Shown piece after piece: positions 1,717 to 40,383 of a DNA stretch of 64,000 nucleotides. Numbering within the stretch: the stretch's first letter is position 1; each line of letters opens with the position of its first letter. Under the pieces are notes generated by a model. It was given only the letters and a program-made list of their open reading frames with translations, was not told the DNA's origin and did not search any database. Both the position numbers and the translations under genes were made by a program. This DNA comes from an uncultured virus (IMG/VR IMGVR_UViG_3300000313_000091) (lineage: Duplodnaviria > Heunggongvirae > Uroviricota > Caudoviricetes), in IMG/VR virus record IMGVR_UViG_3300000313_000091; one strand, 5' to 3'.

Positions 1717-2040
1717 ATGGAAGTACTTATAGCTGACGAAGACTTGCAGGAGCTCATAGAAACGGGTAAGAACAAGGCTTATAAGAAAATTTCAAGAGAT
1801 AAAATGCTTATGTCAGGCTTGGCCAAAGCTGTTTCTATTATGCGTACCGTAAGTAACGTAAGTGATTTGAAAGCTTTTAGCTACCTTCATTATGAACATT
1901 TGAAATATGAACTAAGTGACGTTAGCTCTGTAAGGGTTGTAAGCAATAGGGTTGAACGTTTATTATTTACAGAGAGAGAAGATGGAGTAGAAATAACATT
2001 ATTAAAATTAGATGAAACTCATTATGGCAACAAAAAATGA
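1717..2040 (+). CDS. higB: HigB/RelE-like toxin
   Basis: 107 aa upstream of and overlapping a HigA-type HTH gene; LHYEHLK..SSVRV..RLLF pattern, ending HYG. Confidence 0.75.
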   Translation: MEVLIADEDLQELIETGKNKAYKKISRDKMLMSGLAKAVSIMRTVSNVSDLKAFSYLHYEHLKYELSDVSSVRVVSNRVERLLFTEREDGVEITLLKLDETHYGNKK

Positions 2041-3118
2041 ATTATCGGTTCCCTTTATGGCTATTCATCCTGGTAGCATATTAAAGGAAGAGCTAAAAGA
2101 GAGAGGAATCAAACAAAAAGATTTTGCTCAGCTAATTGGTATGCGGGAGACACATCTGAGTACTTTAATAAAAGGTAGAAGAAACATCTCGGCTGAAGTG
2201 GCCGACAAGTTAGAGACGTACTTAGGTATTTCGTCTGTATCTTGGTTAAATTTGCAAACTCAATATGACTATGATTGCAGGGTGATTGAGAAGAGAGGGA
2301 TTGAGGAGCAATCGGCCTCAAACGAATTAACGGCTTATGAGAATGTCTTTTCTGTCAAAACTGTAATAAATAGGCTTGGCATAAATTGCTCAACTAGAAG
2401 TGGCCAACTGAAGAAAATGACTGAAGAATTGAATATTTGTCCTGCAGCCGAGCTGCAACTAAAGGTATCTGGAATGTTTCGTAAATCCGAGAAAAAAGGA
2501 TTGGACGAAAAGATGATTGCTACTTGGATATTATTGTCACGCGCAGCAGCAAAGAAAATAACTGTAAAAAATACTTTTGATAAAGATCGTATTAAAGAAT
2601 TGATTGTAGAATTACGCGATATTTTCAACAGTAATAGCGATACAGTAAACAGAGTTACATCAGCATTCTCTGAATACGGTATAAAATTTGGCATTGTTGA
2701 AAAAGTGGATGGAGCGTCCATTGATGGATATTCTTTTTATGACGATGATACGCCTTGCATTATTGTAACAAAGAGATATGATAAAATTGACAGCTTTGCG
2801 TTTTCTGTAATGCATGAACTCGGACATGTACTAAATCATCTTGGTCATGAGAATCAGACTACATGGATGAGTATATCCGATTATCATAAAGGAAATAGAG
2901 AGGAGAAAGAGGCTGACGAGTTTGCTTCAAACTCTTTAATTCCAAAGTCTATTTGGGATAAAGCTCCTGAAACAAAGGTTAATTCTACTTTGTTGCAAAA
3001 TACGTTCAGCGAATGGGCCAAAGGAATAAATTATAATAAATGGATTGTTCTTGGACGAGTTTCTTATGAACTACAAATGTATAAGTTCAAAGATGATGGG
3101 ACAAGAAAAATTGCATGA
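2012..3118 (+). CDS. higA: HigA-family HTH antitoxin fused to ImmA/IrrE-type metallopeptidase
   Basis: AIHPGSILKEEL HigA N-terminus, WLNLQTQYD, C-terminal MHELGHV (HExxH) and EKEADEFA. Confidence 0.85.
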   Translation: MKLIMATKNELSVPFMAIHPGSILKEELKERGIKQKDFAQLIGMRETHLSTLIKGRRNISAEVADKLETYLGISSVSWLNLQTQYDYDCRVIEKRGIEEQSASNELTAYENVFSVKTVINRLGINCSTRSGQLKKMTEELNICPAAELQLKVSGMFRKSEKKGLDEKMIATWILLSRAAAKKITVKNTFDKDRIKELIVELRDIFNSNSDTVNRVTSAFSEYGIKFGIVEKVDGASIDGYSFYDDDTPCIIVTKRYDKIDSFAFSVMHELGHVLNHLGHENQTTWMSISDYHKGNREEKEADEFASNSLIPKSIWDKAPETKVNSTLLQNTFSEWAKGINYNKWIVLGRVSYELQMYKFKDDGTRKIA

Positions 3119-3135
3119 TAATTTCAACCATTGAT

Positions 3136-3165
3136 AAAAGGCAGCCAAAATCGGCTGCCTTTTTT
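3136..3165 (+). terminator. Intrinsic terminator
   Basis: AAAAGGCAGCC/GGCTGCCTTTTTT hairpin. Confidence 0.8.
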
Positions 3166-3300
3166 ATCCACTTTTCTCAAACATTAATGTTGCTTCTAAT
3201 AAAAATGATCAAAAACATATAAGTACTTATAGATTACCAAAAGAGAGTATTGTAAGTGTTTTATTTTAATGTTATTTTTGCGGCAAAATTGTAAGACATC

Positions 3301-3546
3301 ATGAAAGCAGCATTGAGAATAAGAGAAATAATGAAACAAAAGAAAATGACACAACGTCAAATGGCTTTAGAATTGGGCATTACTGCAAGTGCTCTCTATA
3401 TATTATTGCGTACAGGTAATATGAGGGTAGAAAGACTTACAGAAATAGCAGATATATTAGGTGTCGACATATCAGAACTGTTTGAAAGCAAGAAAGATTA
3501 TATCACATGCCCTCATTGTGGTAAACGAATTTACATGGAACATTAA
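3301..3546 (+). CDS. XRE-family HTH regulator with C-terminal zinc ribbon
   Basis: HTH pattern and CPHCG motif. Confidence 0.85.
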   Translation: MKAALRIREIMKQKKMTQRQMALELGITASALYILLRTGNMRVERLTEIADILGVDISELFESKKDYITCPHCGKRIYMEH

Positions 3547-3875
3547 TCTTTCAGTTCTTCGTCCAACTTTTCTATTTCTTGATCTATCTTGCTTACTTCA
3601 ACCTTTACAGTAGACAGGTCAATATTTTGTAACGCTGGGGTTACATATTTCAGCAAGCCAACAACGATATCTAGTCTTTCTTTCGGCTTGCAAGCGGCCA
3701 AGTCAACTTTCAATTGCTCGCTGTTCATATAACCGGATGTAAAATCTTTGATTATCTCACGTACTTCACGTATACCTTTCTTCTCGTGTGCACCTCCGTT
3801 GCCTACGCGATTATCTATTGCACCCTTTTTTGTTTTACGTACCTCTTTCTTTGTCTCTTCTATTTTCTTTTTCAT
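3543..3875 (-). CDS. Putative terminase small subunit
   Basis: Basic/Gly N-terminus then DL..CKPKERLDIVVGLLKYVTPALQ, resembling Bacteroidetes phage TerS-like proteins. Confidence 0.5.
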   Translation of the reverse strand: MKKKIEETKKEVRKTKKGAIDNRVGNGGAHEKKGIREVREIIKDFTSGYMNSEQLKVDLAACKPKERLDIVVGLLKYVTPALQNIDLSTVKVEVSKIDQEIEKLDEELKD

Positions 3876-3897
3876 GCTCTTATAAAGATAAAACTCT
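3876..3897 (+). promoter_or_regulatory. Late-promoter motif copy 1
   Basis: GCTCTTATAAAGATAAAACTCT identical to 21653-21674. Confidence 0.65.
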
Positions 3898-3948
3898 GTT
3901 CACGAAAATACATCTTATTATTGCAGCTAAAGTTTTATCATTATAATT

Positions 3949-4497
3949 ATGAATCCATTATCAATAGCAGCAGCTGGCACAGGACTAGTCGGCAGTGTTT
4001 TCGGAACGATCTCGGCTGCGAGACAAGCAAGAAAAGCAAATAAACTTCTTAACCAAGAAGCTGAAGAGAATCAAGACTGGTATAATAAGAACTACAATCA
4101 GGATTATACCCAAACAGCCTCAAACCAGGCTCTAATTAATAAGACAGCAGAAATTCTACGTAATAGATCAAATGCAGAAGCTGGAAGACAAGCGGTCGGA
4201 GGTGGAACGGATGAATCTGTAGCACAGGAAAAAGAACAGGATAATCAAGCTTTAGGTAATTCAGTCCAGAATATAGCAGCACAAGCAGATGCTAGAAAGA
4301 ATCAAGTAGAAAGCCAGTATCAGAACCAAAAGAATGCAATCAACAACGCAAAGATCGGCGTAGCCAATAATCAAGCGCAGAATATTGCGAGCGCTACGTC
4401 GGGACTTGCGGGTACTTTGGGGACGATTGTTGCTAATTCAGGTACAGGAGGAGCTGCTACGACAAAGAAGAACTTATATAATTCCGGGTTAGCATGA
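3949..4497 (+). CDS. Putative virion ejection/internal protein
   Basis: Gly/Ala hydrophobic N-terminus and Q/N/A-rich coiled coil, first gene of the large-protein/portal operon. Confidence 0.6.
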   Translation: MNPLSIAAAGTGLVGSVFGTISAARQARKANKLLNQEAEENQDWYNKNYNQDYTQTASNQALINKTAEILRNRSNAEAGRQAVGGGTDESVAQEKEQDNQALGNSVQNIAAQADARKNQVESQYQNQKNAINNAKIGVANNQAQNIASATSGLAGTLGTIVANSGTGGAATTKKNLYNSGLA

Positions 4498-5960
4498 TAC
4501 TTAATCCACTAGAAAACATAAAAGGTATAAGACCGGCTCCTACAGCATTTCAAAATACAATGACGGGCGAGATTACAAATCCGTCTGTATTGGAGCAAAC
4601 AGGGAATGATGCTGTAGCTAAACTGAATCAGATCGATTCTGTGCCTGAAGGAACTCAACCGGGAACAATGCCTACGTTACAGCCTGCACCGGAGCAACAA
4701 CAAGCTCCACAGACTAATCAACAGCCCATACAACAAGCCACGCAACCAAATACCCAACAGGCTAACGTTGTAGACTTAAGAAACGCTCAGCCTGCGCAGC
4801 CAGCTCAACCCGTACCTGCTCAAACGACTCAACCCGCAACGCCACAAGTTCAAACTCCTACACCAACTAGTCAGGTTGGGGCGGATATTAGCAATCGTCT
4901 AGGTGATATCACTCAAGAAAATAAGAACACGGCCCAGATAAATAATTATCAGGATTATGTAAACAATGCTTTGAATGATAGCGGTGGTAAGGATTTATCT
5001 CTTAGTGATATATACAATCTTATGAATCCTAAAGATTCTTCACCCGAAGCTTTAGCTGCAGAACAGAAGAAGAAACAGACAGAGGATAATATATACAATA
5101 TAGCAGATATAGCGGATGCCTTTACCAATCTTATAGGTACAACGAAAGGAGCACCAAATCGTAAGACTCTCAATCTTACAGGTGCAAATGAGCAACGGTA
5201 TGAAAAGATACTTGCTAATCGTATGGCGATGGACAAGAATTATAGGGATGCCATGAAGAATGTTCTTGATATGTATTATAAGAATCAGGATTCTCACAAC
5301 AAACAAGTCAATCAGCAAGCTACGTTGGCTCAGGGGGCAATGAAAATACTACAAAGCCAAAATCAAAATATTGAGGAGAATAGATACAAACAAGATTCTC
5401 TTTCGGAAAAGACTCAACACGATACCGCTACGCAACAAGAAACAGCAGCGCATAATAGAGCAACCGAGAAGAGTGCAGAAGAAGGACATCAAATTACCCT
5501 TCGTGGACAGAATATTACAGCAGCTCATAATAAAGCAGAAGAGAATATTAGTAAAAACAATCTAGGCGTTTCAAAGGAGAGATTGAATTTTGAGGAATCT
5601 AAAGCGGGGAATGCAGCAGATAAGAATAAGCTATTATTTAAGACGCGTAATGGCTTTGTAAAAGTAGATAAAACTGATTGGGAAAATGGAGGTTGGAGAA
5701 GATTCTACAATAATGCTATAGGGGATGTTCGACGAGAAGCTCAACAAAGAGGATTGGCTAACATGAATAGTCTTATAGGAAAAGACGACCCGAATAAGCT
5801 TACTGATTCTGAGAAGAGGCACATTGTAGAGAATTCTTTCTCAAAATATGCTAACATGAGCAATATGATTCATAGCTATTCCCAAGGAAAGATCTATTCT
5901 CCCACCAATGCAGCCAATCAAACATTCCAACGTAAATACAGTAAATATAAAATAAAGTAA
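4494..5960 (+). CDS. Putative virion internal protein (P/Q-rich)
   Basis: 488-aa ORF overlapping its neighbour in the ejection operon. Confidence 0.55.
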   Translation: MILNPLENIKGIRPAPTAFQNTMTGEITNPSVLEQTGNDAVAKLNQIDSVPEGTQPGTMPTLQPAPEQQQAPQTNQQPIQQATQPNTQQANVVDLRNAQPAQPAQPVPAQTTQPATPQVQTPTPTSQVGADISNRLGDITQENKNTAQINNYQDYVNNALNDSGGKDLSLSDIYNLMNPKDSSPEALAAEQKKKQTEDNIYNIADIADAFTNLIGTTKGAPNRKTLNLTGANEQRYEKILANRMAMDKNYRDAMKNVLDMYYKNQDSHNKQVNQQATLAQGAMKILQSQNQNIEENRYKQDSLSEKTQHDTATQQETAAHNRATEKSAEEGHQITLRGQNITAAHNKAEENISKNNLGVSKERLNFEESKAGNAADKNKLLFKTRNGFVKVDKTDWENGGWRRFYNNAIGDVRREAQQRGLANMNSLIGKDDPNKLTDSEKRHIVENSFSKYANMSNMIHSYSQGKIYSPTNAANQTFQRKYSKYKIK

Positions 5961-5961
5961 T

Positions 5962-16392
<10,431 letters not shown>

Positions 16393-16395
16393 ATT

Positions 16396-18336
16396 ATGAA
16401 CTTAGTACCATTATCAAAACTTAGTTCCTATAAAGGAAAGAAGAAACATGTTTCCTCAAAGATGCGCTACGATGTAGATAGAGATGCAAAAGATCTTTTG
16501 GAACGTGCAGCGCAGGTTTGGGCAGATATGTATACGTTTAGAAAGGATATGGAACGGAACAGGAACTATACTTACGGTAAGCAATGGAACGACATGGTTT
16601 GTGTCGACGGCCGTATGATGACAGAAGAAGACTATATTCGTCAGCAGGGACGAGTCCCCCTTAAAAATAACCTCATACGTCGATTCGTAAAAACCGTATT
16701 GGGTGTATGGCACAGTCAGGATAAGGAACCGACCTGCACTTCACGTGATCGGGACGAACAGAAATACGGGGAAACAATGACTACCATACTCCAATACAAC
16801 CGACAAATGAATCGATTATCCGAACTTGACGGTCGTGCATTTGAAGAATTTATGATATATGGTGCCGTATGCCAAAGAAAGTGTCCAGATTGGAGGAAAG
16901 GGCGTTATGATGAATACACAGATAATGTGGACCTTCAAAAATGGTTTGTTGATGGAGATATGAAAGATCCTCGGAACTGGGATGCGGACTTAATAGGAGA
17001 GATTCATGATATTTCTCATGGAGATCTTTTATCGAAATTTGCAAAGACACCTTCCGACAAATTCATATTGGATGAAATCTATCCCGATTATTCGGGGTAT
17101 GTATCAAATAACAGTGAAGAATTCGGTTATAGGAAACAGATTGAATCAAGTTTCTATATACCCAAGGATGCCAATTTATGCCGTGTTTTTGAAATATGGA
17201 GTAAAGAAGAAAAACCACGTTATCATTGCCATGATTATGCGACGGGAGAATGTTTCAAGTGTGAAATAAAAGATAAACCAAAGCTTATTGATGCCGTAAA
17301 CAATAAACGTATTCAAGAAGGAACACAAGCCGGTATGGATAAAGAGGATATCCCTCTTATCGAATACGAGTGGTGTATAGATAGATTTTGGTACTTCCGT
17401 TTCATATCCCCAGACGGATATGTACTTGATCAGGGAGAAACACCATTTGAACATGGGGAACATCCTTACACCTACAAATTATATCCTTTTGTTAATGGGG
17501 AGATACATTCTTATGTAGCCGATGTAATAGACCAGCAACGCTATGTCAATAGATTGATTACCATGTATGATTTCATTATGTCTGCTAGCGCAAAAGGTTT
17601 ACTGTTGTTTCCCCAAGAGGCGAAACCGGACGAATACAGTTGGAAAGAAATTGGTAAGATGTGGGGCGACTTTAAAGGAATACTTCCTTATAAGTCTAAA
17701 AACACCACTTCATTGCCACAGCAAATTTCAAGTAATTCCACAAACATAGGTATTGGTGAATTGCTGAATATCCAACTTAAATTTTTTGAAGATATTGCAG
17801 GTGTGAATGGAGCACTACAAGGTAAGCCCGGATTCTCAGGAACAAGTGCCAGCAAGTATCAGCAAGAAACGCAGAATGCTACCATGTCATTACTTGATAT
17901 CCTGGAGGCTTTCTCTTCCTTCTTGAAAGATGGCGCATTGAAAGATGTGCAAAATATCCAGCAAATTTATGATGACCGAATGATACGGAATATCGTTGGT
18001 AAGGATGCGGATATGAATGTGGATCATCCTGAACGTGTAAAAGATATCGAGTTTGATTTGGCTATTGCAGAAAGTCAGACATCCATGGCTTCACGTCAGG
18101 TTTCAAATGATTTCTTGCTTCAGTTGTTGAATGCCCACTATATTACTTTGGAACAAATGTTGGATACCGGTTCATTCCCCTATGCTGATAAATTACTTCA
18201 GGAAATAAAGAAACAACAGGAAGCAGTACAAAGCGGGCAACAACCACAACCGTTATCACCCGATTTACAGCAGCAAGTTCAACAAGGTGTCAATATGCCC
18301 GCTGTAAATAGTATGTATAGCCAATTATCAGCTTAA
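16396..18336 (+). CDS. Portal protein (P22-like)
   Basis: 646 aa; RNYTYGKQW, PLKNNLI, DVIDQQRYVNRL; convergent with the terminase operon. Confidence 0.8.
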   Translation: MNLVPLSKLSSYKGKKKHVSSKMRYDVDRDAKDLLERAAQVWADMYTFRKDMERNRNYTYGKQWNDMVCVDGRMMTEEDYIRQQGRVPLKNNLIRRFVKTVLGVWHSQDKEPTCTSRDRDEQKYGETMTTILQYNRQMNRLSELDGRAFEEFMIYGAVCQRKCPDWRKGRYDEYTDNVDLQKWFVDGDMKDPRNWDADLIGEIHDISHGDLLSKFAKTPSDKFILDEIYPDYSGYVSNNSEEFGYRKQIESSFYIPKDANLCRVFEIWSKEEKPRYHCHDYATGECFKCEIKDKPKLIDAVNNKRIQEGTQAGMDKEDIPLIEYEWCIDRFWYFRFISPDGYVLDQGETPFEHGEHPYTYKLYPFVNGEIHSYVADVIDQQRYVNRLITMYDFIMSASAKGLLLFPQEAKPDEYSWKEIGKMWGDFKGILPYKSKNTTSLPQQISSNSTNIGIGELLNIQLKFFEDIAGVNGALQGKPGFSGTSASKYQQETQNATMSLLDILEAFSSFLKDGALKDVQNIQQIYDDRMIRNIVGKDADMNVDHPERVKDIEFDLAIAESQTSMASRQVSNDFLLQLLNAHYITLEQMLDTGSFPYADKLLQEIKKQQEAVQSGQQPQPLSPDLQQQVQQGVNMPAVNSMYSQLSA

Positions 18337-18705
18337 TTTGACTACTATTTTACTAGTGAGCTTGTATTTTTTGCACCAATTGAGAAATTTACTAGTGAGG
18401 TAATACTTATAATACTCGTTCATAATTTTTAGACCGTCCTCCACTTTCTTTTGCAAGAATTCGGGGGACGGTTTATTTCCGAACTTATTGCTTGTGTAAT
18501 AGAAACAAGTATTGATCACATTACCCATTTTGTTTCTACGGGGAATCAATCCATTTCTTTTATAATTAATGAAATCCTTTTTCGTGAATATCATTAGATC
18601 GAATCCGTAAGGTAGTACATAATATCTGTCTCCTGTTTTCTCATGTGCATTATCCGCTAAATTGATTGCGGCTTCAAGTCTCTTTTTAAATATAAATCCA
18701 AACAT
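18328..18705 (-). CDS. Hypothetical phage protein downstream of terL
   Basis: 125-aa ORF in the terminase operon. Confidence 0.6.
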   Translation of the reverse strand: MFGFIFKKRLEAAINLADNAHEKTGDRYYVLPYGFDLMIFTKKDFINYKRNGLIPRRNKMGNVINTCFYYTSNKFGNKPSPEFLQKKVEDGLKIMNEYYKYYLTSKFLNWCKKYKLTSKIVVKLS

Positions 18706-18716
18706 ATCTTTAAATT

Positions 18717-20798
18717 TTAAATGGTTGCTGCCGAAATGGCTGTATTTACTTTTACCTTATCTCCTCGCTGTATTAATTGGGGAATATCCATCTCATAAGT
18801 CGATACCCACAATGCAATAGCCGTACTCATCAATATATCATCATGTGCTCCGTCAATCGCTCCATATGATCCGTTTTTCTTTTTCTCATAAACCCTATAT
18901 TCATTCAAGCATCTTTCATCACGTTCGATATAACCTTTCTCACGAACAACCCTTATCATGTTTGATATGAGTGCCGGCTTGGTCGAGGTATTCGTATGGA
19001 AACCGTAACGGACAGGATTATGCATCTTTATATCTTCCTCCGATTGTCGGCGGGCATAGATATTATCGTATACATTCTTTATTTGGTTTAAGATAAACCC
19101 TGACTGATCTCCGTCGACGGATGGATCTTTTGTTTCCAGCGTATTGCTTTCAATGACTAATAGAGCATCATTGTAATATTTCGCTATCTGTGCCGCCTTC
19201 CATGACAAGAGATCGTGGTCAATATGTCCGTACCATTGTGCAACGAGTTCCGGACCTTCACCGTCTTTCATCCAAAAACGGTCGAATACTCTTATTACGG
19301 ACCAGTCCGCCTTGTTTGAGCGTCCTCCGATATCTACGGATACAATGTACCTATTTGATACTTTCATGGAGGATGGTTTCTTCCATATCCACAAGTGCCC
19401 CTGCCTATCATCTATAAATGAAAGATTCCTCAATGCTTTCTTTCCTTCAATACCATCTCCTTGCACTTCTCCGATAAATTCGGGAACTTTGCAGGCGGAT
19501 TTAAATTTGTCAACAAGGTATTGGTCAAATACCATCTGGCCGGAAAGTTTAAAGGCTTCGATATCATCTGTCGGAAATTCGGCGGCCATTGTCGCATGGT
19601 CCGTATAACTTTTCCTTTTTGTTATATACCAGTTTATCGCTTCCAATGAGGCACCACTTTCCCACAATTTCCATAGGTATGCCCCACATTCATGTCGTAA
19701 GTCTATTTCAACCTTATTTTCTTTTGATTCGTATAGATTTTTAGCAAATTCTTTTTTATCCTCGATAGATTCAAAAGATTTCCTGTAAATTTTTATTTGA
19801 AACCATGCAATAAACAATGCCTTGTAATTCGAGCGTAAATTTTTTGCATCGTCATATTCCTGATAGAAGAAGTCTCCATAACCGTTTGCCGTTGATTCTT
19901 CCACAATCATCGTCCAAGGTATATCCATGATTGATGAAGAGGTAGAACCAATAATATCTTTTGGAGATTTATTGTCTGTTTTCTTCCAATAAGCAACCTC
20001 CGAATAATGGGCTAAAGCCAAATCGCTTGAACGTGCCGATTCGGGGCTTTCAGCAGTACCTACACCGATCTTGCAATTACGTGAAGGTATGATATCTACT
20101 GATCCGGTACGTCCGAAATGTTTAATTTTCTGTTCCTTTCCATTATAAGAATCAGTGGAAGAATAAAGCATCCATAATGGGTAATGATTAATAAGCGTAT
20201 CGAACATACCCTTTACGTTATCTGAGGCAATAGCTTGATGCGCAATTATAATGGAACTCCAACCGGTCTTATGTACGAGTTGAATCCATGCCATGTATAT
20301 CTGCGTTAGTGTGGATCCTCCCCATTGGCGGGCTTTAAGAAGTATGACACGGATAGGCAATCCGGAAAGGCGCATCTCTTCCAATGTTTCGAGTAGTAAT
20401 CTCTGAGGATAATTTAATTTGAAATGTATATCCCAGCCCGTACTTTTATCATGAATGATAGCAAATATAAATGCCCAAAACGCAAAGTCGTATCTTGATC
20501 TTATCTTTATATATTTTCTTTCAAGCTTATCTTTTATCTCATCGTTGTATTCGGCTTTTGGGTGAAGTAGTTTCCACATTTTCTTGAATGACTTTGCAGC
20601 CTTAAGATAACGCACAAACTTATTCTTAAGCATATCTTTTGGAATGTACTGAGTTTGGCTATTCCCTGCAAAATCTTCAATGAATATTTTCTCACGTTTA
20701 AGTGGAGATCCTTCACCGGTTAGTGGATTGAAATTGTCATGTTCTACGTTGCGCCGGTCACTTTCTTCAATGATTTTTAATGCCACCTCTTCATCCAT
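18717..20798 (-). CDS. terL: Terminase large subunit
   Basis: LKARQWGGST Walker A, HYSEVAYW Walker B, ESTANG coupling motif, VDIGG and HDD nuclease motifs. Confidence 0.95.
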   Translation of the reverse strand: MDEEVALKIIEESDRRNVEHDNFNPLTGEGSPLKREKIFIEDFAGNSQTQYIPKDMLKNKFVRYLKAAKSFKKMWKLLHPKAEYNDEIKDKLERKYIKIRSRYDFAFWAFIFAIIHDKSTGWDIHFKLNYPQRLLLETLEEMRLSGLPIRVILLKARQWGGSTLTQIYMAWIQLVHKTGWSSIIIAHQAIASDNVKGMFDTLINHYPLWMLYSSTDSYNGKEQKIKHFGRTGSVDIIPSRNCKIGVGTAESPESARSSDLALAHYSEVAYWKKTDNKSPKDIIGSTSSSIMDIPWTMIVEESTANGYGDFFYQEYDDAKNLRSNYKALFIAWFQIKIYRKSFESIEDKKEFAKNLYESKENKVEIDLRHECGAYLWKLWESGASLEAINWYITKRKSYTDHATMAAEFPTDDIEAFKLSGQMVFDQYLVDKFKSACKVPEFIGEVQGDGIEGKKALRNLSFIDDRQGHLWIWKKPSSMKVSNRYIVSVDIGGRSNKADWSVIRVFDRFWMKDGEGPELVAQWYGHIDHDLLSWKAAQIAKYYNDALLVIESNTLETKDPSVDGDQSGFILNQIKNVYDNIYARRQSEEDIKMHNPVRYGFHTNTSTKPALISNMIRVVREKGYIERDERCLNEYRVYEKKKNGSYGAIDGAHDDILMSTAIALWVSTYEMDIPQLIQRGDKVKVNTAISAATI

Positions 20799-21262
20799 AT
20801 TCCATAAATTTGACCGAGATAAAAACAGTAGATGTGAATGAATATATTAGACATTCCTACCCATCTATAAATGAAGTAGGAAATGACGAATGTAATAAGG
20901 AAATAGATGTTGTCATGTAACCGGTTGTTCTGTGTCCCTACGCACATCCCTCCAATAGCGAATAATACCCCAGAAAATCCCATCGTAAGTTTATCTCCAT
21001 AAAGAAGTATGGGGCATGAAATAAGATACGCTACAAAGAAATATTTAAACTTCACTTTTCTAAATTCCCACAATGCGGTAAGATTGATAAGTAAATGCCA
21101 AATGGTTACATGAAAGAATTGATAGACAAATCTTGAGTACCAAACAGAATTGTGGTTAAATCCAATCTTGTATGGAAGGAAATAGCAAATGATCATAACT
21201 GCTAGAATAATCCATGCAGTCTTTTCATTCTGGAATTGTACCAGCTTTTCTTTATTTTGCAT
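20777..21262 (-). CDS. Rhomboid-family intramembrane serine protease
   Basis: Multi-TM; FFHVTIWHLLIN (HxxxxHxxxN), GFSG catalytic Ser motif, His in the last TM (IFIHIYCF). Confidence 0.85.
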   Translation of the reverse strand: MQNKEKLVQFQNEKTAWIILAVMIICYFLPYKIGFNHNSVWYSRFVYQFFHVTIWHLLINLTALWEFRKVKFKYFFVAYLISCPILLYGDKLTMGFSGVLFAIGGMCVGTQNNRLHDNIYFLITFVISYFIYRWVGMSNIFIHIYCFYLGQIYGIWMKRWH

Positions 21263-21633
21263 ATGTATATGGTTGCGGTTACGGGAGACATATAAAATTT
21301 TGGAGCGGGGGAATTCACTATCTCAAACATTGTGTCAAGTAAAGATTCTTCATTTGTCTTTGAGTATTCAAGGAATCTCTTATAAATCTCCTCAAACATT
21401 TCACGTTTAAATGGTTTCATATTTTCCAATCTATCTCCCTTTATCATTCTGGAAATAACATTTCTGGCCCTGTATTCAGAAACCCAAAATCGAGGGCAGG
21501 GGTGAAGCACTGCTTTCTGTATAGCTTCTTCAGAAGAAGTTATTTCCTTTTTTGACATTTCTTCGTGGTAAGCTTCCATTAACGCTCGCCTACGTTGTAG
21601 ACAAAAATCCAATGTACACCCCTTATTCTTCAT
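21202..21633 (-). CDS. Phage protein, possibly DNA-binding or packaging-related
   Basis: 143-aa basic protein, first gene of the terminase operon. Confidence 0.6.
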   Translation of the reverse strand: MKNKGCTLDFCLQRRRALMEAYHEEMSKKEITSSEEAIQKAVLHPCPRFWVSEYRARNVISRMIKGDRLENMKPFKREMFEEIYKRFLEYSKTNEESLLDTMFEIVNSPAPKFYMSPVTATIYICKIKKSWYNSRMKRLHGLF

Positions 21634-21652
21634 TTATGCAAATTTACGAAAC

Positions 21653-21674
21653 GCTCTTATAAAGATAAAACTCT
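21653..21674 (+). promoter_or_regulatory. Late-promoter motif copy 2
   Basis: Identical 22-mer; TATATTTG -7 box downstream. Confidence 0.65.
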
Positions 21675-21723
21675 ACTATCAAGGGCACTGTTTATATTTG
21701 TTTGTCATTAAAAATATAAAACC

Positions 21724-22500
21724 ATGGCGGATGAGAAAGATAAAAACATAGAAAATCAAGTAGCTCAAAATGAGCCACCTGTGAGTAAAAAAGATGCTTT
21801 CAGGAAAAGAATAGCCGATAAATTTCCGGAGGAGGACTTGTCTGACGAGAATGCTTACTATGGAAAAATGAGCGGATTAATGGATAATTACGATAAAAGC
21901 GAGAACGAAAGAAAACGTATCTCTGACGCTTTTTCTAAAAATCCGGCCAATGCCTCTTTGTTCCAATCCGTAATGAACGGAAGGGATTTACTTTCAACTT
22001 ATGTCACACGATATGGAGTAGATGGCTTGATTTCAAGATTGCAAGATCCTGAGGTTGTTGCCAAGCTCCAAAAGGAGCAAGACGACTATTTGAAGAAAGT
22101 AGAAGAAAGCGGAAAGACTAAAAAGAATTTTGACAAAAACATTAATAAGTCTTTGGAAACGATTGAAGGTCTTGTGAAGGATGGAACCTATACAGATGAA
22201 CAAGTAAACGGGGCTATTTCAAATATAGAAGAGATCGTCAATGATTATTTCATGGGTATTATCAAACCTGAAACTTTGGCTGATGTCATGCATGCAAAAA
22301 GTTACTCGGATGATATTGCCAATGCTGCTAATCAAGCCGCCGTAAAAGCGAAGAATGACAAAATAGATCGTGCCAAATTAGCTAAGCCTGAAGTTCCTAC
22401 TCTTAATGGCAAATCTGAATCTGTCATGCAAAAAAGCAGTGAATTCAAGTTGCCTAAAAATAGGAATATATGGGCTGGTGCCAAAAGAAACAATTTGTAA
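21724..22500 (+). CDS. Putative scaffolding protein
   Basis: Charged helical 258-aa protein immediately upstream of the capsid gene. Confidence 0.6.
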   Translation: MADEKDKNIENQVAQNEPPVSKKDAFRKRIADKFPEEDLSDENAYYGKMSGLMDNYDKSENERKRISDAFSKNPANASLFQSVMNGRDLLSTYVTRYGVDGLISRLQDPEVVAKLQKEQDDYLKKVEESGKTKKNFDKNINKSLETIEGLVKDGTYTDEQVNGAISNIEEIVNDYFMGIIKPETLADVMHAKSYSDDIANAANQAAVKAKNDKIDRAKLAKPEVPTLNGKSESVMQKSSEFKLPKNRNIWAGAKRNNL

Positions 22501-22503
22501 TTA

Positions 22504-24180
22504 ATGAAAAATATGAAAAGTAAAAAGTTTAAATTTATCCTGCGTGCTATATTATTTGTTATAGCTCTATGCGTGGGAGTCCCCGGCGGGGTCATGATGG
22601 CCGAAGATGTGGCGACTGCCGCTACAAATGCAAGTGATCTTGAAGGAGGTGGAAAGCAAGTTGCCGGTGACGGAGAAGGATTGGCTGGTGCCGCAACTGA
22701 GACCGGTGGAGAGATTATGAATCCGGATAATCTATATACAAAACATATAGATGAAATAATTACTAAGATTCGTCCGAATCGTACTCCGATTGATCAGATT
22801 TCCCGTAGGGCGGCACGTTCCGTAAAAACTAATTCAGCAGTAGTTAAATACTATTCAGTGGGAACACGCCCGATCCGGACTACATTGACTCAAGCAGTTG
22901 AAGCGCAGACAGATGAATCTACAGTCTCGTTGCATGTGGCAAATGTGAATATGTTTACAGCAGATGATACGATTGTTTGCGTGGGAGTTAAAGGCTATGC
23001 AGATGATGGAACCACTCAAACAACTCATGATTTGGAGTTGTGTGTTATCAAAAGAGATGACAACGGATATCCTGTATGTTATGCGATAAATGGAAAGATC
23101 GGATCGTCTAAACAAACGATCGTCATGCCTGCAATTCCTGCAAATACGGTTCTTGTTCGTGCTGCCAAAGCATGCGCGGAGGATACGATGAGAACAGGTA
23201 AGTTCTCCACTGTTCCAACAGCAGACGAACAATACACACAAAATTTCATGACGCAGGTATCTCAAACCACCTTTGATAAGATGGCCCAAAAGGAGATTGA
23301 TTGGAATTTCAACGACTTAGAGGAAGATGCAATCTTTGATATGAAGCGTACGATGGAAGTCAGTTTCCTAATGGGAACTAAACGCAAGATCAAACATAGT
23401 CTAAAAGATACCCAACAATACTTTACAGGAGGTATATTTTGGCAGGCTGGACGTGATGTACAAATTGGTACTCCTGATGTCTTGTCTTTATCTATAGATA
23501 GTGCAGCAACTAAAGCGGGGAATGCTACCATTAAATTAAATGGCGTGTCTTATACTATCGCTGTTACATTGGGAGAATCAGCCAGCAATATAGCAGCCGC
23601 TATTGCTGCAGTTTCATTTACAGGCTGGTCTACTGTCGCTAGCGGAAATATTGTAACTTTCACAAGACTTGTTGCCGGCAATTATGTAACTCCTACATTT
23701 ACCGATACCGATACTACCGGAGCTACAGGAACATTTACTGTTTCTTCCGTAGGCATAAGTGTAGATCAATTAGTCGACTTTACAAAAGCAATCTTTGTTG
23801 GAAACGATTCTTCCGACAAGAAAATTTTACTTTGCGGTTCGGACATGATGGCTGCCTTTGAAAAGATCAAAGGAGATAAATATCAGATTACCAAGAGCTC
23901 TATTGAAAACTGGGATTTGACATTCAAATCTTTCCGTACAGGTTTCGGAGAAGTTCTTCTTATCTATCATGATTTGTTTGATCAACTGGGCCGTTCCAAT
24001 CAAGGATTGGTACTTGATGCCGATTATCTTGTTAAAGCTGTCCGTTTCAACTGGACACGTTATGCCCTTGACTTGAAAAAAGCCGGTGTAAGCAACACCG
24101 ATGATGTCATACTGCAAGAGGTAAGTGCCTTGTATTTGCGTTACCCTGACGCTCATGCAAGAGCTAGCCTGGCAGCTTGA
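22504..24180 (+). CDS. Major capsid protein with N-terminal hydrophobic segment and an internal insertion domain
   Basis: 558 aa after scaffold; TPIDQISR, QYTQNF, DMKRTMEVSFLMG, FTGGI, FGEVLLIYH; terminator follows. Confidence 0.8.
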   Translation: MKNMKSKKFKFILRAILFVIALCVGVPGGVMMAEDVATAATNASDLEGGGKQVAGDGEGLAGAATETGGEIMNPDNLYTKHIDEIITKIRPNRTPIDQISRRAARSVKTNSAVVKYYSVGTRPIRTTLTQAVEAQTDESTVSLHVANVNMFTADDTIVCVGVKGYADDGTTQTTHDLELCVIKRDDNGYPVCYAINGKIGSSKQTIVMPAIPANTVLVRAAKACAEDTMRTGKFSTVPTADEQYTQNFMTQVSQTTFDKMAQKEIDWNFNDLEEDAIFDMKRTMEVSFLMGTKRKIKHSLKDTQQYFTGGIFWQAGRDVQIGTPDVLSLSIDSAATKAGNATIKLNGVSYTIAVTLGESASNIAAAIAAVSFTGWSTVASGNIVTFTRLVAGNYVTPTFTDTDTTGATGTFTVSSVGISVDQLVDFTKAIFVGNDSSDKKILLCGSDMMAAFEKIKGDKYQITKSSIENWDLTFKSFRTGFGEVLLIYHDLFDQLGRSNQGLVLDADYLVKAVRFNWTRYALDLKKAGVSNTDDVILQEVSALYLRYPDAHARASLAA

Positions 24181-24233: not shown

Positions 24234-24620
24234 ATGACGAGAAAATATTATAGAGCACCTTCAAATATAACGGTATCCTTATCAATGCTCGGAGTACCGA
24301 AAACAATTTCTTTCTTCCCTCAGATCGTAGGATCCTTGTATATAACAGAAAATTCCTCAGAACAAGAATCATTGGAGAGCAACCCATGGTTTGGGGATAA
24401 ATATGTATTGGAAAAGGTTGAGGAATCCGAAGATAAACCAAAAAAAGAAAAACATGAGGTGACGGAAAATCAACAGAATAAGATCATTTCTGTTGCATCC
24501 ATATCTGATGCGCAGGAATATCTGATGAAAGAGTTTCATGCTTCTGAAAAACAACTTACAAGTAAGAAAAAAATCAATGCTTTTGCTAAAGAAAAAAATA
24601 TTGAGTTTGTCGGATTATGA
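24234..24620 (+). CDS. Hypothetical virion-associated protein
   Basis: 128-aa ORF following the capsid gene. Confidence 0.6.
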   Translation: MTRKYYRAPSNITVSLSMLGVPKTISFFPQIVGSLYITENSSEQESLESNPWFGDKYVLEKVEESEDKPKKEKHEVTENQQNKIISVASISDAQEYLMKEFHASEKQLTSKKKINAFAKEKNIEFVGL

Positions 24621-25321
24621 AAAATGTATCTGATATAATAAAAGCTGTCCGTATTATTTTGGACGAGAATCAAAGTGATAGTGCCTTAGTCAGTGATGAT
24701 ACGCTGGATTTGGATTCTCTTATTGAAAGCCAAATAGCAAATGGACTAAGAAAAGTGTTGATCATTGCTCCGCAATCCATGATAGATAATGGACAGTCTT
24801 TTTCTTCCAATCAGATCACATGGGGAAAATCACAAACAGGTACAGGGTGGGGAAGCGTAGATCTCCCTACCGATTTTTTAAGGTTACTTTCATTCAAAAT
24901 GAGTGATTGGATTCGTCCGGTAGTCAATCCGATTACTCCGAATGATCCAAGTTATTCACAACAAAAATTCAACTATCCAGGATTAAGAGGTACACCTCAA
25001 TGTCCGATAGTTGCAATTTTAGAGGGAACATCCAATAAAAAGTTGGAATTTTTCTGTTCGTATGCTTCCACAGATGCGAATGGAGCTATTACTTCTGCCA
25101 CAACTCCAACTATCGAATTGGCAAAGTATGTGGCCTATCCGAGTGTTGTTACCAATAATAGCATAGATCAAATAGATTGTGGAGATAACTTATATCAACC
25201 GATGCTTTATTTCATAGCGTCTCAGGTATGCTTTTCTCTTGGTGATAAACAAGGCCAAGTGATGGATACACTTGCGAAAAATTTAATGGGTTTAGTAGAT
25301 GACAACAGATCTGCACAATAA
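24617..25321 (+). CDS. Head-tail adaptor / tail tubular A-like protein
   Basis: LPTDFLRLL motif; lies between capsid and tail fibre genes. Confidence 0.6.
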   Translation: MKNVSDIIKAVRIILDENQSDSALVSDDTLDLDSLIESQIANGLRKVLIIAPQSMIDNGQSFSSNQITWGKSQTGTGWGSVDLPTDFLRLLSFKMSDWIRPVVNPITPNDPSYSQQKFNYPGLRGTPQCPIVAILEGTSNKKLEFFCSYASTDANGAITSATTPTIELAKYVAYPSVVTNNSIDQIDCGDNLYQPMLYFIASQVCFSLGDKQGQVMDTLAKNLMGLVDDNRSAQ

Positions 25322-29921: not shown

Positions 29922-30350
29922 ATGAAATCAAGTGATATTCTAATAGAAAAAATAAAAGAGTTTGAGGGTGTAAAGCTTGTCGCTTACAAATGCCCTGCCG
30001 GTATTCCTACAATTGGAGTAGGGCACACGAAAGGAGTAAAAATGGGTCAAAAAATATCTATGGCGCAAGTCAATAGTTTATTGCGTTCTGATCTTTCACC
30101 GATTGAAGCCTTCTTGAATAAGCAGTCGGCTAAATTTACTCAGGGGCAATTTGACGCATTGGTAGACTTTGCCTTTAATCTAGGAATTGGAGCTTTAAGC
30201 GGATCATCACTTTTTAAAAAAGCTCTTGCTAAAGTGAAGGATACAGAAATAAAAAATGAGTTTATGAAATGGACTCATGCAGCAGGAAAGGTGTTGCCCG
30301 GATTAGTTAAACGTCGCCAATGGGAATCAGTTCGTTGGTGTGAAAAATAA
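29922..30350 (+). CDS. Endolysin (GH24 lysozyme)
   Basis: FEG..AYKCPAGIPTIGVGHT; QFDALVDFAFNLG; GLVKRR. Confidence 0.95.
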   Translation: MKSSDILIEKIKEFEGVKLVAYKCPAGIPTIGVGHTKGVKMGQKISMAQVNSLLRSDLSPIEAFLNKQSAKFTQGQFDALVDFAFNLGIGALSGSSLFKKALAKVKDTEIKNEFMKWTHAAGKVLPGLVKRRQWESVRWCEK

Positions 30351-30603
30351 TACGATTATGAAGATTATAAAAACATTACAAACAAGGTGGAAGGCTGAAA
30401 CGCCTGATGTAGCAAAGAAGATAAGAAATATAGCCGGCACAATAACCGCGGCTCTCCCTACAGCGTGGGGAATAGTAAGTTCAATGCCTAAGATGTTGGA
30501 TGTATTTCCCGATGGCTTTACAAAGTTTGTTGGATATGTAACTTTGGCATCAGCACTTATAACTACTATTGCCGGGTTGCAAACTAAAAAAAGTGATTCA
30601 TGA
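30340..30603 (+). CDS. Putative holin (2 TM)
   Basis: Two hydrophobic segments within the lysis cassette. Confidence 0.6.
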   Translation: MKNNTIMKIIKTLQTRWKAETPDVAKKIRNIAGTITAALPTAWGIVSSMPKMLDVFPDGFTKFVGYVTLASALITTIAGLQTKKSDS

Positions 30604-31103
30604 AAAAGTACATTATACTTGTTGTGGCTTTGGCATTATTAAGCTCGTGCGGATCCAGCAAGCAGACGATAAAAGAGAATCTTACAGCTCAAACCGATTC
30701 TGTTTATTTACATCATGATTCTATGGCCGTTCAGATTGTATCTAAAAAGGTAGAAACCGAAACTGGCACGGAAGAAGTGGAAACTACGACAACCACATAC
30801 GATACGAAGACGACTGATAAAGATGGAACGCATCCCGTTCTTTCTAGGACAACATCAACATCTAAGAAAGGGATTAAGACGAATAAAGAAGAAACGACTT
30901 CACAAGCCAAGCAAATGGTAAATAAGGATAGTGCCAAGGTTAATAAGAAGTCAGACCATAAAAAGGACGCGGATAAAGCTAAGACTGAGACAACTGTGCC
31001 GAAGCAGATATCTCATCTTGTTTGGTCTGTAATTGTTCTTATTATTATTTTCATTGGTTGGAAATTTAGGGAAAAGATAAAGTTGTTTTTTCAAAAGAAA
31101 TAA
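30600..31103 (+). CDS. Putative unimolecular spanin
   Basis: Lipobox LSSC plus C-terminal TM and basic tail, last gene of the lysis cassette. Confidence 0.6.
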   Translation: MKKYIILVVALALLSSCGSSKQTIKENLTAQTDSVYLHHDSMAVQIVSKKVETETGTEEVETTTTTYDTKTTDKDGTHPVLSRTTSTSKKGIKTNKEETTSQAKQMVNKDSAKVNKKSDHKKDADKAKTETTVPKQISHLVWSVIVLIIIFIGWKFREKIKLFFQKK

Positions 31104-38772: not shown

Positions 38773-38930
38773 TGACATTGCTCAATATTCTCTGTAATTA
38801 AAGAAAATTGTCATGAGCTGTTTTATTTGTAAACTTTCTTCTAAGCAAAGATCTCAACGAGAATATTTTTGTCAGAAAAACTATTAACTAAAAAGATTAT
38901 CATAAGTTTTATGGGAAATTACTCATCATT

Positions 38931-38945
38931 TTATAAAGATAAAAC
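38931..38945 (+). promoter_or_regulatory. Late-promoter motif copy 3
   Basis: TTATAAAGATAAAAC, 25 nt before TTTG. Confidence 0.6.
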
Positions 38946-38988
38946 CTTAGTTTTCCAAAATGTTTCTTCCTTTGCAAAAATAGATATT

Positions 38989-39414
38989 ATGGATATTCAG
39001 ATATTGAAGTCGGATGTAATGGGAATCATTTCAGAAGAATCAGCCTATAAAAGTTCCCATGCTACGGAGAATAAGTTTGATAAGCAATTTATAAAAGTTC
39101 AGGACTGGACATATATCGGCAATCATTGGACCGCTGCAAAACAGATAATGATAGATGTGTTGAAGAAATTCCTTACTTCTGTCACGGATAGTACGGATGG
39201 AGATTTTGATGTGTCACTGACTATTCCAAACTTTGATTCTAATCTATCTACTTCATTGACATCTGCCATAAATCGTTTCATCATCAATTATCTGATGTGT
39301 CAATGGATGATAGTTAATGATGATGAGGATGCGAAGGAATATGATGCTTTGTATAAAGACAATATACAAAGTGTGAAGAATTTTATTTATAGTAGAACAA
39401 AACCAACTTACTAA
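38989..39414 (+). CDS. Putative neck/ring adaptor protein 1
   Basis: Start revised to ATG 38989 downstream of the promoter motif; paralog of the next two genes. Confidence 0.55.
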   Translation: MDIQILKSDVMGIISEESAYKSSHATENKFDKQFIKVQDWTYIGNHWTAAKQIMIDVLKKFLTSVTDSTDGDFDVSLTIPNFDSNLSTSLTSAINRFIINYLMCQWMIVNDDEDAKEYDALYKDNIQSVKNFIYSRTKPTY

Positions 39415-39899
39415 TGCAATCAATAGCTATCACACTAAACAAGAAAGATTTATTCTTTGAAGTGAAGAATAAACTCTATACGATCTCGGAAAGTCGTAAG
39501 ACGCCTGAGAATCTTGAAGCGGTTGACTATATTAAAGTCAATGATGATACTAATGATCAATATCGTGTATTGAGTTCTTTTGGTAAATCAAAAAATGAGG
39601 TAGAGAATTTATTATCAAAGTATTCGTCGAATAGTGCTACTATAGTGCAGGATGAAACGATTGATACTAAATTGACCGACACACTGACATTTGCTCTTTC
39701 TATGCCGGATAATTTCGCCAATAATGCAAAGTTATCAAATGCAATACATAATTATCTAGTTGATAAAGCTGTGTTTGATTGGCTGATGGTAGCTGCACCA
39801 AATGAGGCAACACCTTATCAAGGAGTATATACTAGTGATCTGCAAGAAATAGTTTTGATATTTAATAAAAGGAGTAAACCGACTTATGCTGAATCCTAA
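39414..39899 (+). CDS. Putative neck/ring adaptor protein 2
   Basis: AIHNYLVDKAVFDWL..RSKPT. Confidence 0.55.
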   Translation: MQSIAITLNKKDLFFEVKNKLYTISESRKTPENLEAVDYIKVNDDTNDQYRVLSSFGKSKNEVENLLSKYSSNSATIVQDETIDTKLTDTLTFALSMPDNFANNAKLSNAIHNYLVDKAVFDWLMVAAPNEATPYQGVYTSDLQEIVLIFNKRSKPTYAES

Positions 39900-40383
39900 A
39901 ACATTTACCGTAGCCCTTAACGTCAAAGCGATTATTTCGGATATTAAAATGAAAGCTTATTTGATTGCTCAAAAATACCCGGATAGTGAACAGAAGACAG
40001 AAATAGAGGATATCGGAACAAGTAACATTGATATGCTGTACCGATTTATTCAACGTGCCACTACCACATTGATAGAGGGGTTATATTTTGCAACTCGATC
40101 TATTGCTGATGATGGAACAAGTAAAGATAACTCTTTATCCCGCACCGATAGTATAGGCATTGTTCTTGTACTTCCTTTTGATTTTTCGTCAACATCACTC
40201 AATGCTGTAATAGAGTATTGTCATGATTATTTCGTGTCAACGGGATTATTTGAATTCCTTTTTATCTCTGACGAGAAAGAGGCTGAGAAGTGGAATCAGA
40301 AAGCCATGGACGATTTGGAAAAGATAAAAGAATATGCCTCCGAAAAGGTTCTCCCCTTTCGAAGACAATCAAGTGTATTTTAG
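39886..40383 (+). CDS. Putative neck/ring adaptor protein 3
   Basis: YCHDYFVSTGLFEFL paralogous pattern. Confidence 0.55.
   Translation: MLNPKTFTVALNVKAIISDIKMKAYLIAQKYPDSEQKTEIEDIGTSNIDMLYRFIQRATTTLIEGLYFATRSIADDGTSKDNSLSRTDSIGIVLVLPFDFSSTSLNAVIEYCHDYFVSTGLFEFLFISDEKEAEKWNQKAMDDLEKIKEYASEKVLPFRRQSSVF

Follow-up and report, generated by a model that had tools for sequence, protein, structure and literature searches.

Organization of the locus

We analysed a 64,000-nucleotide stretch of DNA from an uncultured tailed virus (IMG/VR record IMGVR_UViG_3300000313_000091), hereafter the window, which contains a temperate phage of about 60 kb, a Bacteroides-type prophage. Two of its genes concern us here, one for a putative rhomboid intramembrane protease and one for a major capsid protein (MCP) that begins with a hydrophobic leader. 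The rhomboid gene is second in a minus-strand operon that runs 143-amino-acid (aa) gene, rhomboid, large terminase (terL) and 125-aa gene (Table 1), and the start of terL overlaps the rhomboid stop by 22 nucleotides (nt). On the other side of a divergent spacer, a plus-strand arm carries a scaffold-like gene, the MCP gene, a head-tail adaptor gene, a fibre gene and the lysis cassette. The ATG of the MCP gene lies 3 nt after the stop of the scaffold-like gene.

An original prediction made from the sequence had described an intact rhomboid overlapping the start of terL, and its coordinates, HxxxxHxxxN and GFSG motifs and histidine in a transmembrane (TM) helix are all correct. The rhomboid is also divergent from the scaffold and capsid genes as claimed, across the 90-bp spacer. 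The shared late-promoter motif proposed for this spacer did not hold up: each strand has one TAnnTTTG word (21639-21646, minus; 21693-21700, plus), and the window as a whole shows no enrichment for it (97 occurrences versus 84.6 ± 10.1 expected; 10 of 100 shuffles gave at least as many). No family or fold could be assigned to the product of the 143-aa gene with Pfam or a fold search.

The nearest cultured relatives are the temperate Bacteroides phages BS-TP4, BKO1-TP3 and BF1-TP2, which have the identical gene order and 42-51% MCP identity. Their GenBank records already label the rhomboid, by product name or in a structural-match note, and report structural matches to terminase for the counterpart of terL. 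Among 50,697 deposited phage genomes searched with three query MCPs, these three Bacteroides phages were the only members of the leader-bearing family. A tblastn search of the window rhomboid against the 50,697 phage records gave zero matches, and the three relatives were reached through the MCP. Phages of this kind are frequent in the human gut, BS-TP4 being found in 31.3% of 930 viromes according to its authors (PMC12694917).

An intact rhomboid protease in the head module

The rhomboid has six predicted helices, with H51, H56 and N60 in TM2, G95-F-S97-G in TM4 and H143 in TM6. As a single sequence it scored under the Pfam cut-off (Rhomboid, PF01694; E = 0.0025, 18.5 bits versus 22.6). A profile built from 37 aligned homologues matched GlpG chains at E = 4.5e-11 to 3e-5, with Haemophilus influenzae GlpG (2nr9) at 4.5e-11 and Escherichia coli GlpG at about 1e-7. 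Of these homologues, 35 came from other loci and were 18-33% identical to the window rhomboid, and two were database matches with 70% and 29% identity. Exactly six columns were invariant in the alignment, namely H51, H56, N60, G95, S97 and H143, which together are the rhomboid signature. The AlphaFold2 (AF2) model had a predicted local distance difference test score (pLDDT) of 88.2 and a predicted TM-score (pTM) of 0.84. Using this model, Foldseek returned GlpG or iRhom structures at 37 of PDB ranks 1-38 (rank 34 was not printed), with probabilities of 0.63-1.00.

When homologues from all fetched loci were considered, the six signature residues were all intact in 178 of 185 distinct sequences, and three of the remaining seven are cut by contig ends. 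Ser97 and His143 were found in each of the 182 complete homologues, the other three ending at contig ends. The TM2 motif was nearly as uniform, with H51 in 184, H56 in 185 and N60 in 182 of the 185. Two rhomboids (L473 and L474) have Cys at N60, one other homologue has Thr and one has Arg at H51, all with the catalytic Ser and His kept. Judged by these residues and the predicted fold, the rhomboid is genuine and intact and appears catalytically competent.

Like GlpG of E. coli and H. influenzae (MEROPS S54; 2ic8, 2nr9), the phage protein has a six-helix core with HxxxxHxxxN in TM2, GxSG in TM4 and a TM6 histidine, and its Foldseek TM-scores were 0.5-0.68. Unlike GlpG, it is only 161 aa long, lacks a cytoplasmic domain and is encoded in a terminase/head operon. 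A WR motif in loop L1 is a feature of the rhomboid family; here many homologues, though not all, have an Arg three residues ahead of Tyr47, and their L1 is far shorter than that of GlpG. Across the phage family, Lys plus Arg amount to 7.1 in the loops on the N-terminal side versus 1.5 on the other side. Because this bias gives a GlpG-like N-in topology, the active site should face the periplasm.

A conserved hydrophobic leader on the capsid protein

The MCP matched Pfam SU10_MCP (PF17236, formerly DUF5309) across residues 80-554 (E = 1.5e-25; 90.7 bits versus a gathering score of 24.1) and phrog_26635 from residue 3 (E = 7e-134), and its family profile weakly matched a solved capsid protein (9in6, E = 4e-7). 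Its N-terminus reads MKNMKSKKFKFILRAILFVIALCVGVPGGVMMAED. AF2 placed a helix at residues 7-23 and gave low confidence to residues 25-123, in a model that was poor as a whole (pLDDT 58.7, pTM 0.45).

The basic and hydrophobic N-terminus is as quoted in the original prediction, and it recurs in 165 distinct MCP N-termini. These have in common a start rich in Lys/Arg, a single hydrophobic stretch and, behind it, G-x4-V-x-M-A-x-A, which is followed in most by L-P-D-[AG]-G. The counts per column among the 165 were G 155, V 156, M 157, A 161, A 151, L 158, P 157, D 155 and G 165. Positions of the boundary motif were better conserved than the hydrophobic core, which fits the expectation for a recognition site. 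In the relatives, the linker region carries LPDAG and GIATETxGR motifs. The MCP was the only open reading frame (ORF) in the window carrying the boundary motif. A 182-aa protein (3949-4497) had been suggested as an alternative substrate, but its start is only mildly hydrophobic and Gly/Ala-rich, with no comparable motif.

Third positions accounted for most of the variation in leader codons: the numbers of variable sites at positions 1/2/3 were 9/1/19, 2/2/7 and 0/0/4 in the three groups compared. From this pattern, the leader is evidently translated and under selection. Seven leader variants read VLFA, with no Met at the MMA position, and an internal start at Met31 or Met32 therefore cannot be the general rule. 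Median net charge was +3 before the hydrophobic segment and -4 after it, the pattern of an N-in/C-out signal. A reading of the leader as a lipoprotein signal was ruled out because the Cys is not conserved.

Separately, residues ~326-417 of the window MCP (23479-23754, plus strand) are an insertion of ~85-90 residues that BS-TP4 and BF1-TP2 lack. It is Ala/Thr/Gly-rich with predicted beta strands and may be an extra surface domain.

Leader and rhomboid occur together in viral contigs

We collected 226 viral-contig loci with at least 2300 nt 5' of the MCP, some fetched by more than one scan and hence not all distinct contigs. Leader and rhomboid were both present in 224 of these loci, 213 scored directly and 11 after correcting the ORF start. 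The 11 had first been scored leaderless as the ORF was called too far upstream, with the leader visible further in. In all 157 two-gene loci from the first two scans, the rhomboid was divergent and lay ~1.1-1.9 kb upstream of the MCP.

The other two of the 226 loci are one contig (L028, the same as L165) with neither leader nor rhomboid. In its 1879-7066 region (55% GC), the homologue of the 143-aa gene directly adjoins terL and the rhomboid is gone; tblastn found no rhomboid remnant in this record, which does have terL. Its leaderless MCP, which shares 81% identity with the MCP of the rhomboid-bearing locus L032, starts MRKFW..MKMAASTLPDAGK (N-terminus: MRKFWNVLYGIEGRRSQMKMAASTLPDAGK). On sequence grounds, this contig amounts to a clean natural double loss, a natural 'bypass' allele. 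A further candidate, L020/L178, considered as a short leader without rhomboid, proved uninformative, the record being 56% complete and also without terL.

Independent losses in Bacteroidales genomes

Two more kinds of MCP were present among 80 Bacteroidales genome loci, mainly in Prevotellaceae: one with a weak Ala-rich leader and one without a leader, starting 1-8 residues before LPDAG. The leaderless variants start right behind the conserved MA(x)A, which fits a mature N-terminus at that point. In many Prevotellaceae elements the MCP and terL modules are 14-23 kb apart, making a score of 'no rhomboid within 6 kb' misleading, and we therefore searched whole genomes for 23 of the loci. The rhomboid was found in none of six genomes having a leaderless MCP as their sole MCP and in 14 of 14 genomes having the weak Ala-rich leader, usually on the same contig (one copy has an in-frame TGA). 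Three genomes fell outside this comparison: one with two prophages, one with its MCP cut at a contig end and one with a misflagged leader-plus-rhomboid locus. In the two-prophage genome, the rhomboid sits with the leader-bearing MCP. Two elements were flanked by the same host-like genes in two genomes, and the block comprising the 143-aa gene and rhomboid was present only in the leader-bearing one.

We then placed these losses on trees of MCP cores, using FastTree with 106 non-redundant cores and a quick IQ-TREE run with 66 of those; none of the 40 dropped rows was leaderless. On the FastTree phylogeny, the seven leaderless representatives required seven changes, at least four of them forced by supported branches, and rhomboid state was concordant in four of four supported pairs and seven of seven overall. 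IQ-TREE gave six supported pairs, all concordant (sign test p = 0.031). The check for phylogenetic co-occurrence suggested in the original prediction is thus positive and replicated across contigs, genomes and two trees. Within the rhomboid clade, every rhomboid-less lineage has lost the leader (seven) or lengthened it to two segments (one). Going by these comparisons, the rhomboid and short leader are gained or lost together.

Some Prevotellaceae elements (L317 in G003, L318 in G007, and L290-L315) have host-like genes between their modules, namely a nucleoside kinase, a P-type ATPase and a SerB-like gene. These split-module elements may be old, rearranged or domesticated prophages.

Short and long leaders in the wider family

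Searching 1.84 billion representatives with the MCP profile returned 784 clusters at E ≤ 0.001, and a hydrophobic N-terminal leader was present in ~123 of the best 150 representatives of these clusters. A scan from distant short-leader MCPs yielded seven short-leader loci, all with the order 143-aa-like gene, rhomboid and terL, and with a slightly different leader motif. The same scan gave 69 T7-like leaderless MCPs without rhomboid, as well as two short-flank loci and one ORF called too far upstream. A scan from long-leader MCPs yielded 70 loci with long or two-segment leaders and no rhomboid (terL was in the flank of 67), along with 10 short-leader loci that all had the rhomboid. Locus L327, which came from the short-leader scan, has a long two-segment leader and no rhomboid; the counterpart of the 143-aa gene encodes 140 aa in this locus and runs into the beginning of terL.

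Pooling these sets gave 300 distinct leaders with rhomboid state known for 236. Leader length was expressed as hydrophobic cover, which replaced the unreliable 'uncharged span'. Median cover was 26 residues with the rhomboid and 38 without. The rhomboid was present versus absent in 0 versus 7 leaders with a cover of 0-8, 10 versus 3 at 9-17, 92 versus 4 at 18-27, 65 versus 6 at 28-33, and 3 versus 46 at 34 or more; several off-diagonal entries come from incomplete leader strings. No lineage with adequate data has a short leader without the rhomboid.

On a broad tree, the rhomboid-bearing MCPs form one side of a single strongly supported branch, with L327 nested inside them. The contrast between short and long leaders therefore represents essentially one deep event plus L327 rather than many independent events. 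In the sister clade (L399-L463 and others), leaders have ~35-47 hydrophobic residues or two segments. No replacement membrane protease was seen at the rhomboid position in three long-leader loci that we read.

A candidate leader peptidase for the capsid protein

Given that, in lineages with adequate data, short leaders are not found without the rhomboid, a short single-span leader would appear to need it, most simply as its leader peptidase. We assign a probability of roughly 0.5 to the phage rhomboid being a dedicated leader peptidase that removes the short MCP leader. The MCP would be made as a precursor whose N-terminal 30-odd residues act as a signal-anchor-like helix, bringing it to the cytoplasmic membrane. 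The co-expressed six-helix rhomboid would recognise G-x4-V-x-M-A-x-A (V30-M-M-A33 in the window phage) and cut there or a few residues downstream, freeing soluble MCP with a new N-terminus just before the LPDAG-type motif and flexible linker. The freed MCP would then assemble with scaffold and portal in the cytoplasm. Such a step may control the place or time of assembly, or may keep the cytoplasm clear of free MCP. What we infer is that the leader enters the membrane and that the rhomboid cuts it, as well as where the cut falls and what it is for; the procapsid tethering and the link to DNA packaging put forward in the original prediction are conjectural too.

Topology is the main difficulty. 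The original prediction had cautioned that the topology must be unusual, and this caveat stands and is sharpened by the combination of a periplasmic active site and N-in/C-out leader charge. These charge patterns put the scissile region at the periplasmic face, and in geometric terms a cut there would require the beginning of the mature chain to extend that far, whereas capsids have to assemble in the cytoplasm. One way out would be a hairpin intermediate in which only the leader and the acidic, flexible linker of 40-50 residues enter the membrane or translocon, with the chain sliding back once it is cut. For the sister clade, whose leaders are long and two-segment, an N-in/C-in hairpin could make such a rescue unnecessary. 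We hold just short of even odds that, in this large Bacteroidales phage clade with hardly any cultured members, the MCP is inserted in the cytoplasmic membrane by a signal-anchor leader and then freed by the phage rhomboid, with the sister clade using a hairpin-type tether.

Several other observations weigh against a role for the rhomboid as leader peptidase. In classical rhomboid substrates the helix follows the cut, and the leader helix has the opposite polarity, lying N-terminal to the proposed site. The large sister clade keeps long hydrophobic leaders without a rhomboid in 70 loci, so leaders as such do not need the phage rhomboid, and the split between short and long leaders is essentially one deep branch. 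Where the rhomboid is missing from metagenome-assembled genomes, the cause may be that these are incomplete, and some of the leaderless elements have undergone rearrangement and are possibly in decay. The article describing the three cultured relatives, in the portion available to us, mentions neither 'rhomboid' nor 'mass spectrometry' (PMC12694917). Finally, the A-x-A of the boundary motif fits the signal peptidase I rule in most relatives, with Ala at position -3 (161 of the 165 N-termini) and position -1 (151 of 165), although the window MCP falls outside this rule by reading A-E-D, with Asp at -1.

This A-x-A raises the prospect that host signal peptidase I or another host protease makes the cut, with the rhomboid serving as a helper on the same leader. 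It might, for example, clear tens of thousands of cut leader peptides in the manner of signal-peptide peptidase or prevent jamming of the translocon. A Gly at the boundary of the hydrophobic (h) and cleavage (c) regions, preceded by a basic n-region and followed by an acidic stretch, is also as expected for such a signal, and a helper role would account as well for the co-variation of rhomboid and leader. However, signal peptidase I refuses Asp at -1, which is what the window clade has, its cleavage means export of the chain, which is impossible for a capsid protein, and the long-leader phages do without any rhomboid. We consider this explanation unlikely, while giving it a real outside chance. 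We are slightly more sceptical that the rhomboid acts on another protein, such as a host membrane, lysis or ejection protein, and is linked to the leader merely through shared descent. The prophage does encode other membrane proteins, including lysis candidates in the 81-aa protein with an N-terminal TM helix and the 167-aa lipoprotein (Table 1), and a single branch sets the rhomboid clade apart in the broad tree. Rhomboids of Stenotrophomonas phages DLP3 and DLP5 are likewise annotated with no capsid link in the part of the article available to us (PMC7326821). Shared descent sits poorly with six to seven independent events in which leader and rhomboid disappear together, with zero discordant cases, and with L327 in addition. 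Moreover, the rhomboid gene is inside the terminase/head operon rather than the lysis cassette, and no other ORF in the window carries the motif.

The rhomboid might instead serve chiefly as a chaperone or dislocase that acts on the leader in the membrane and assists the MCP in getting out, as derlins or iRhoms do, with proteolysis secondary or absent. Such a role would ease the topology problem, and iRhom structures were among the fold matches. Rhomboid pseudoproteases lose the catalytic Ser/His and oxyanion-region residues, whereas the phage family has kept its catalytic Ser/His and oxyanion-region His/Asn almost without exception, making this role improbable. Least probable of all is that the leader is never made, with translation beginning at Met31/Met32 and the upstream frame being an annotation artefact. 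The original prediction had itself named a start at the MMAED Met as the finding that could overturn it. There is a Met at the motif M in 157 of the 165 N-termini, and the MCP of L028 seems to start about there. We nevertheless reject this start given the third-position bias of leader codon variation and the seven VLFA variants. It is further opposed by the basic-then-hydrophobic pattern across 165 distinct sequences of little identity and by the placement of the MCP ATG directly behind the scaffold stop.

Comparison with known systems

To our knowledge, tailed-phage shell proteins are regarded as soluble and cytoplasmic, and the known maturation proteases act inside the procapsid. The HK97 gp4 and T4 gp21 prohead proteases are soluble enzymes that become packaged in the procapsid, where they cut MCP propeptides. 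As in those phages, the protease gene here is in the head module and the N-terminal part of the MCP is presumably gone from the mature shell, but our proposal involves the membrane and a hydrophobic leader. In staphylococcal phage 80alpha, the host protease Prp trims the N-terminus of capsid and scaffold proteins, removing a 14-aa leader that is not hydrophobic. The proposed step resembles this in that a dedicated protease other than a prohead protease would remove a short N-terminal MCP leader, although Prp is a soluble cysteine protease of the host. T4 initiates its prohead at the inner membrane via portal protein gp20 with gp40. Head assembly would similarly start at the inner membrane in the window phage; however, T4 tethers the portal rather than the MCP, and its release requires no intramembrane protease.

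Among rhomboids, Providencia stuartii AarA trims a short N-terminal piece of TatA at a small-residue site near the periplasmic face, thereby activating TatA. The phage rhomboid would likewise trim an N-terminal piece at one specific site of the MCP. TatA has an N-out orientation and remains in the membrane with its helix, whereas the proposed MCP helix is N-terminal to the cut and discarded, leaving a soluble, cytoplasmic product. We know of very few substrates of bacterial rhomboids, and the phage rhomboid and MCP leader provide a natural, genetically linked enzyme-substrate candidate. Gp93 of phages DLP3 and DLP5 is annotated as a rhomboid-family membrane protein, function not given; in contrast to the window rhomboid, its gene sits among siphophage moron and cell-envelope genes, with no capsid link described in the portion of the article available to us (PMC7326821).

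Our literature search, with most subscription journals outside its reach, found no description of a rhomboid/capsid-leader pairing or of an intramembrane protease in procapsid formation. The coupling of rhomboid and leader points to a possible, undescribed membrane step in building tailed-phage heads. If shell proteins do carry a conserved membrane leader, head assembly gains a stage at the membrane. If true, this would be the first capsid maturation step by an intramembrane protease, it would give a viral rhomboid its first substrate and function, and it would imply that tailed-phage head assembly can be membrane-staged via the shell protein itself. With three cultured members, the idea is directly testable.

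Other features of the window

The absence of an HK97/ClpP-type prohead protease had been taken as part of the case for a new morphogenesis system. No such PHROG was found among the 57 window ORFs scanned, nine of which were also covered by Pfam, so the absence itself stands. Its significance does not, since phages with a separate scaffold and a P22-type portal normally lack a prohead protease, and this is not unusual for such a head module.

Table 1. Coordinates of features discussed in the text, in window positions.
Feature	Position	Strand	Remarks
Integrase	438-1610		
HTH-metalloprotease regulator	2012-3118		
Giant virion-type protein, 3476 aa	5962-16392	+	Directly 5' of portal gene
Portal, P22 type	16396-18336	+	PF16510, E = 1.3e-29; also PHROG match
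125-aa gene	18328-18705	-	Last gene of minus-strand operon
Large terminase terL, 693 aa	18717-20798	-	phrog_24361 terminase, E = 7.6e-15
Rhomboid, 161 aa	20777-21262	-	Between 143-aa gene and terL
143-aa protein	21202-21633	-	phrog_27246; first gene of operon; 3' end overlaps rhomboid start
Divergent spacer, 90 bp	21634-21723		One TAnnTTTG word per strand
Scaffold-like protein, 258 aa	21724-22500	+	phrog_22323; role from position only
MCP precursor, 558 aa, SU10 type	22504-24180	+	SU10_MCP and phrog_26635
MCP leader, codons 1-33	22504-22602	+	Lys-rich N-region, then single hydrophobic helix
Boundary motif G25-VPGG-V30-M-M32-A33-E-D35	22576-22608	+	Candidate recognition/cleavage site
MCP linker	22603-22734	+	Acidic, Gly/Ala/Thr-rich; between leader and N-arm
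Head-tail adaptor, SU10 type	24617-25321	+	Weak Pfam match, E = 6e-4, below cut-off; phrog_22135
Lysis-cassette protein, 81 aa	29665-29910	+	N-terminal TM helix
Endolysin	29922-30350	+	
87-aa ORF in lysis cassette	Between endolysin and 167-aa protein	+	
167-aa protein	30600-31103	+	Lipoprotein signal (…LLSSC) and C-terminal TM helix

The 3476-aa ORF matches PHROGs annotated as DarB-like antirestriction, virion structural and peptidoglycan-hydrolase proteins, and is probably a packaged or ejected multi-domain protein. Its homologue in BS-TP4 and BKO1-TP3 is longer still, a single coding sequence across ~16 kb. In the lysis cassette, the 167-aa lipoprotein with its C-terminal TM helix has an architecture like that of a unimolecular spanin. 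Further downstream (38869-40383, plus strand) are three tandem paralogues of 181, 161 and 165 aa, all matching phrog_19255.

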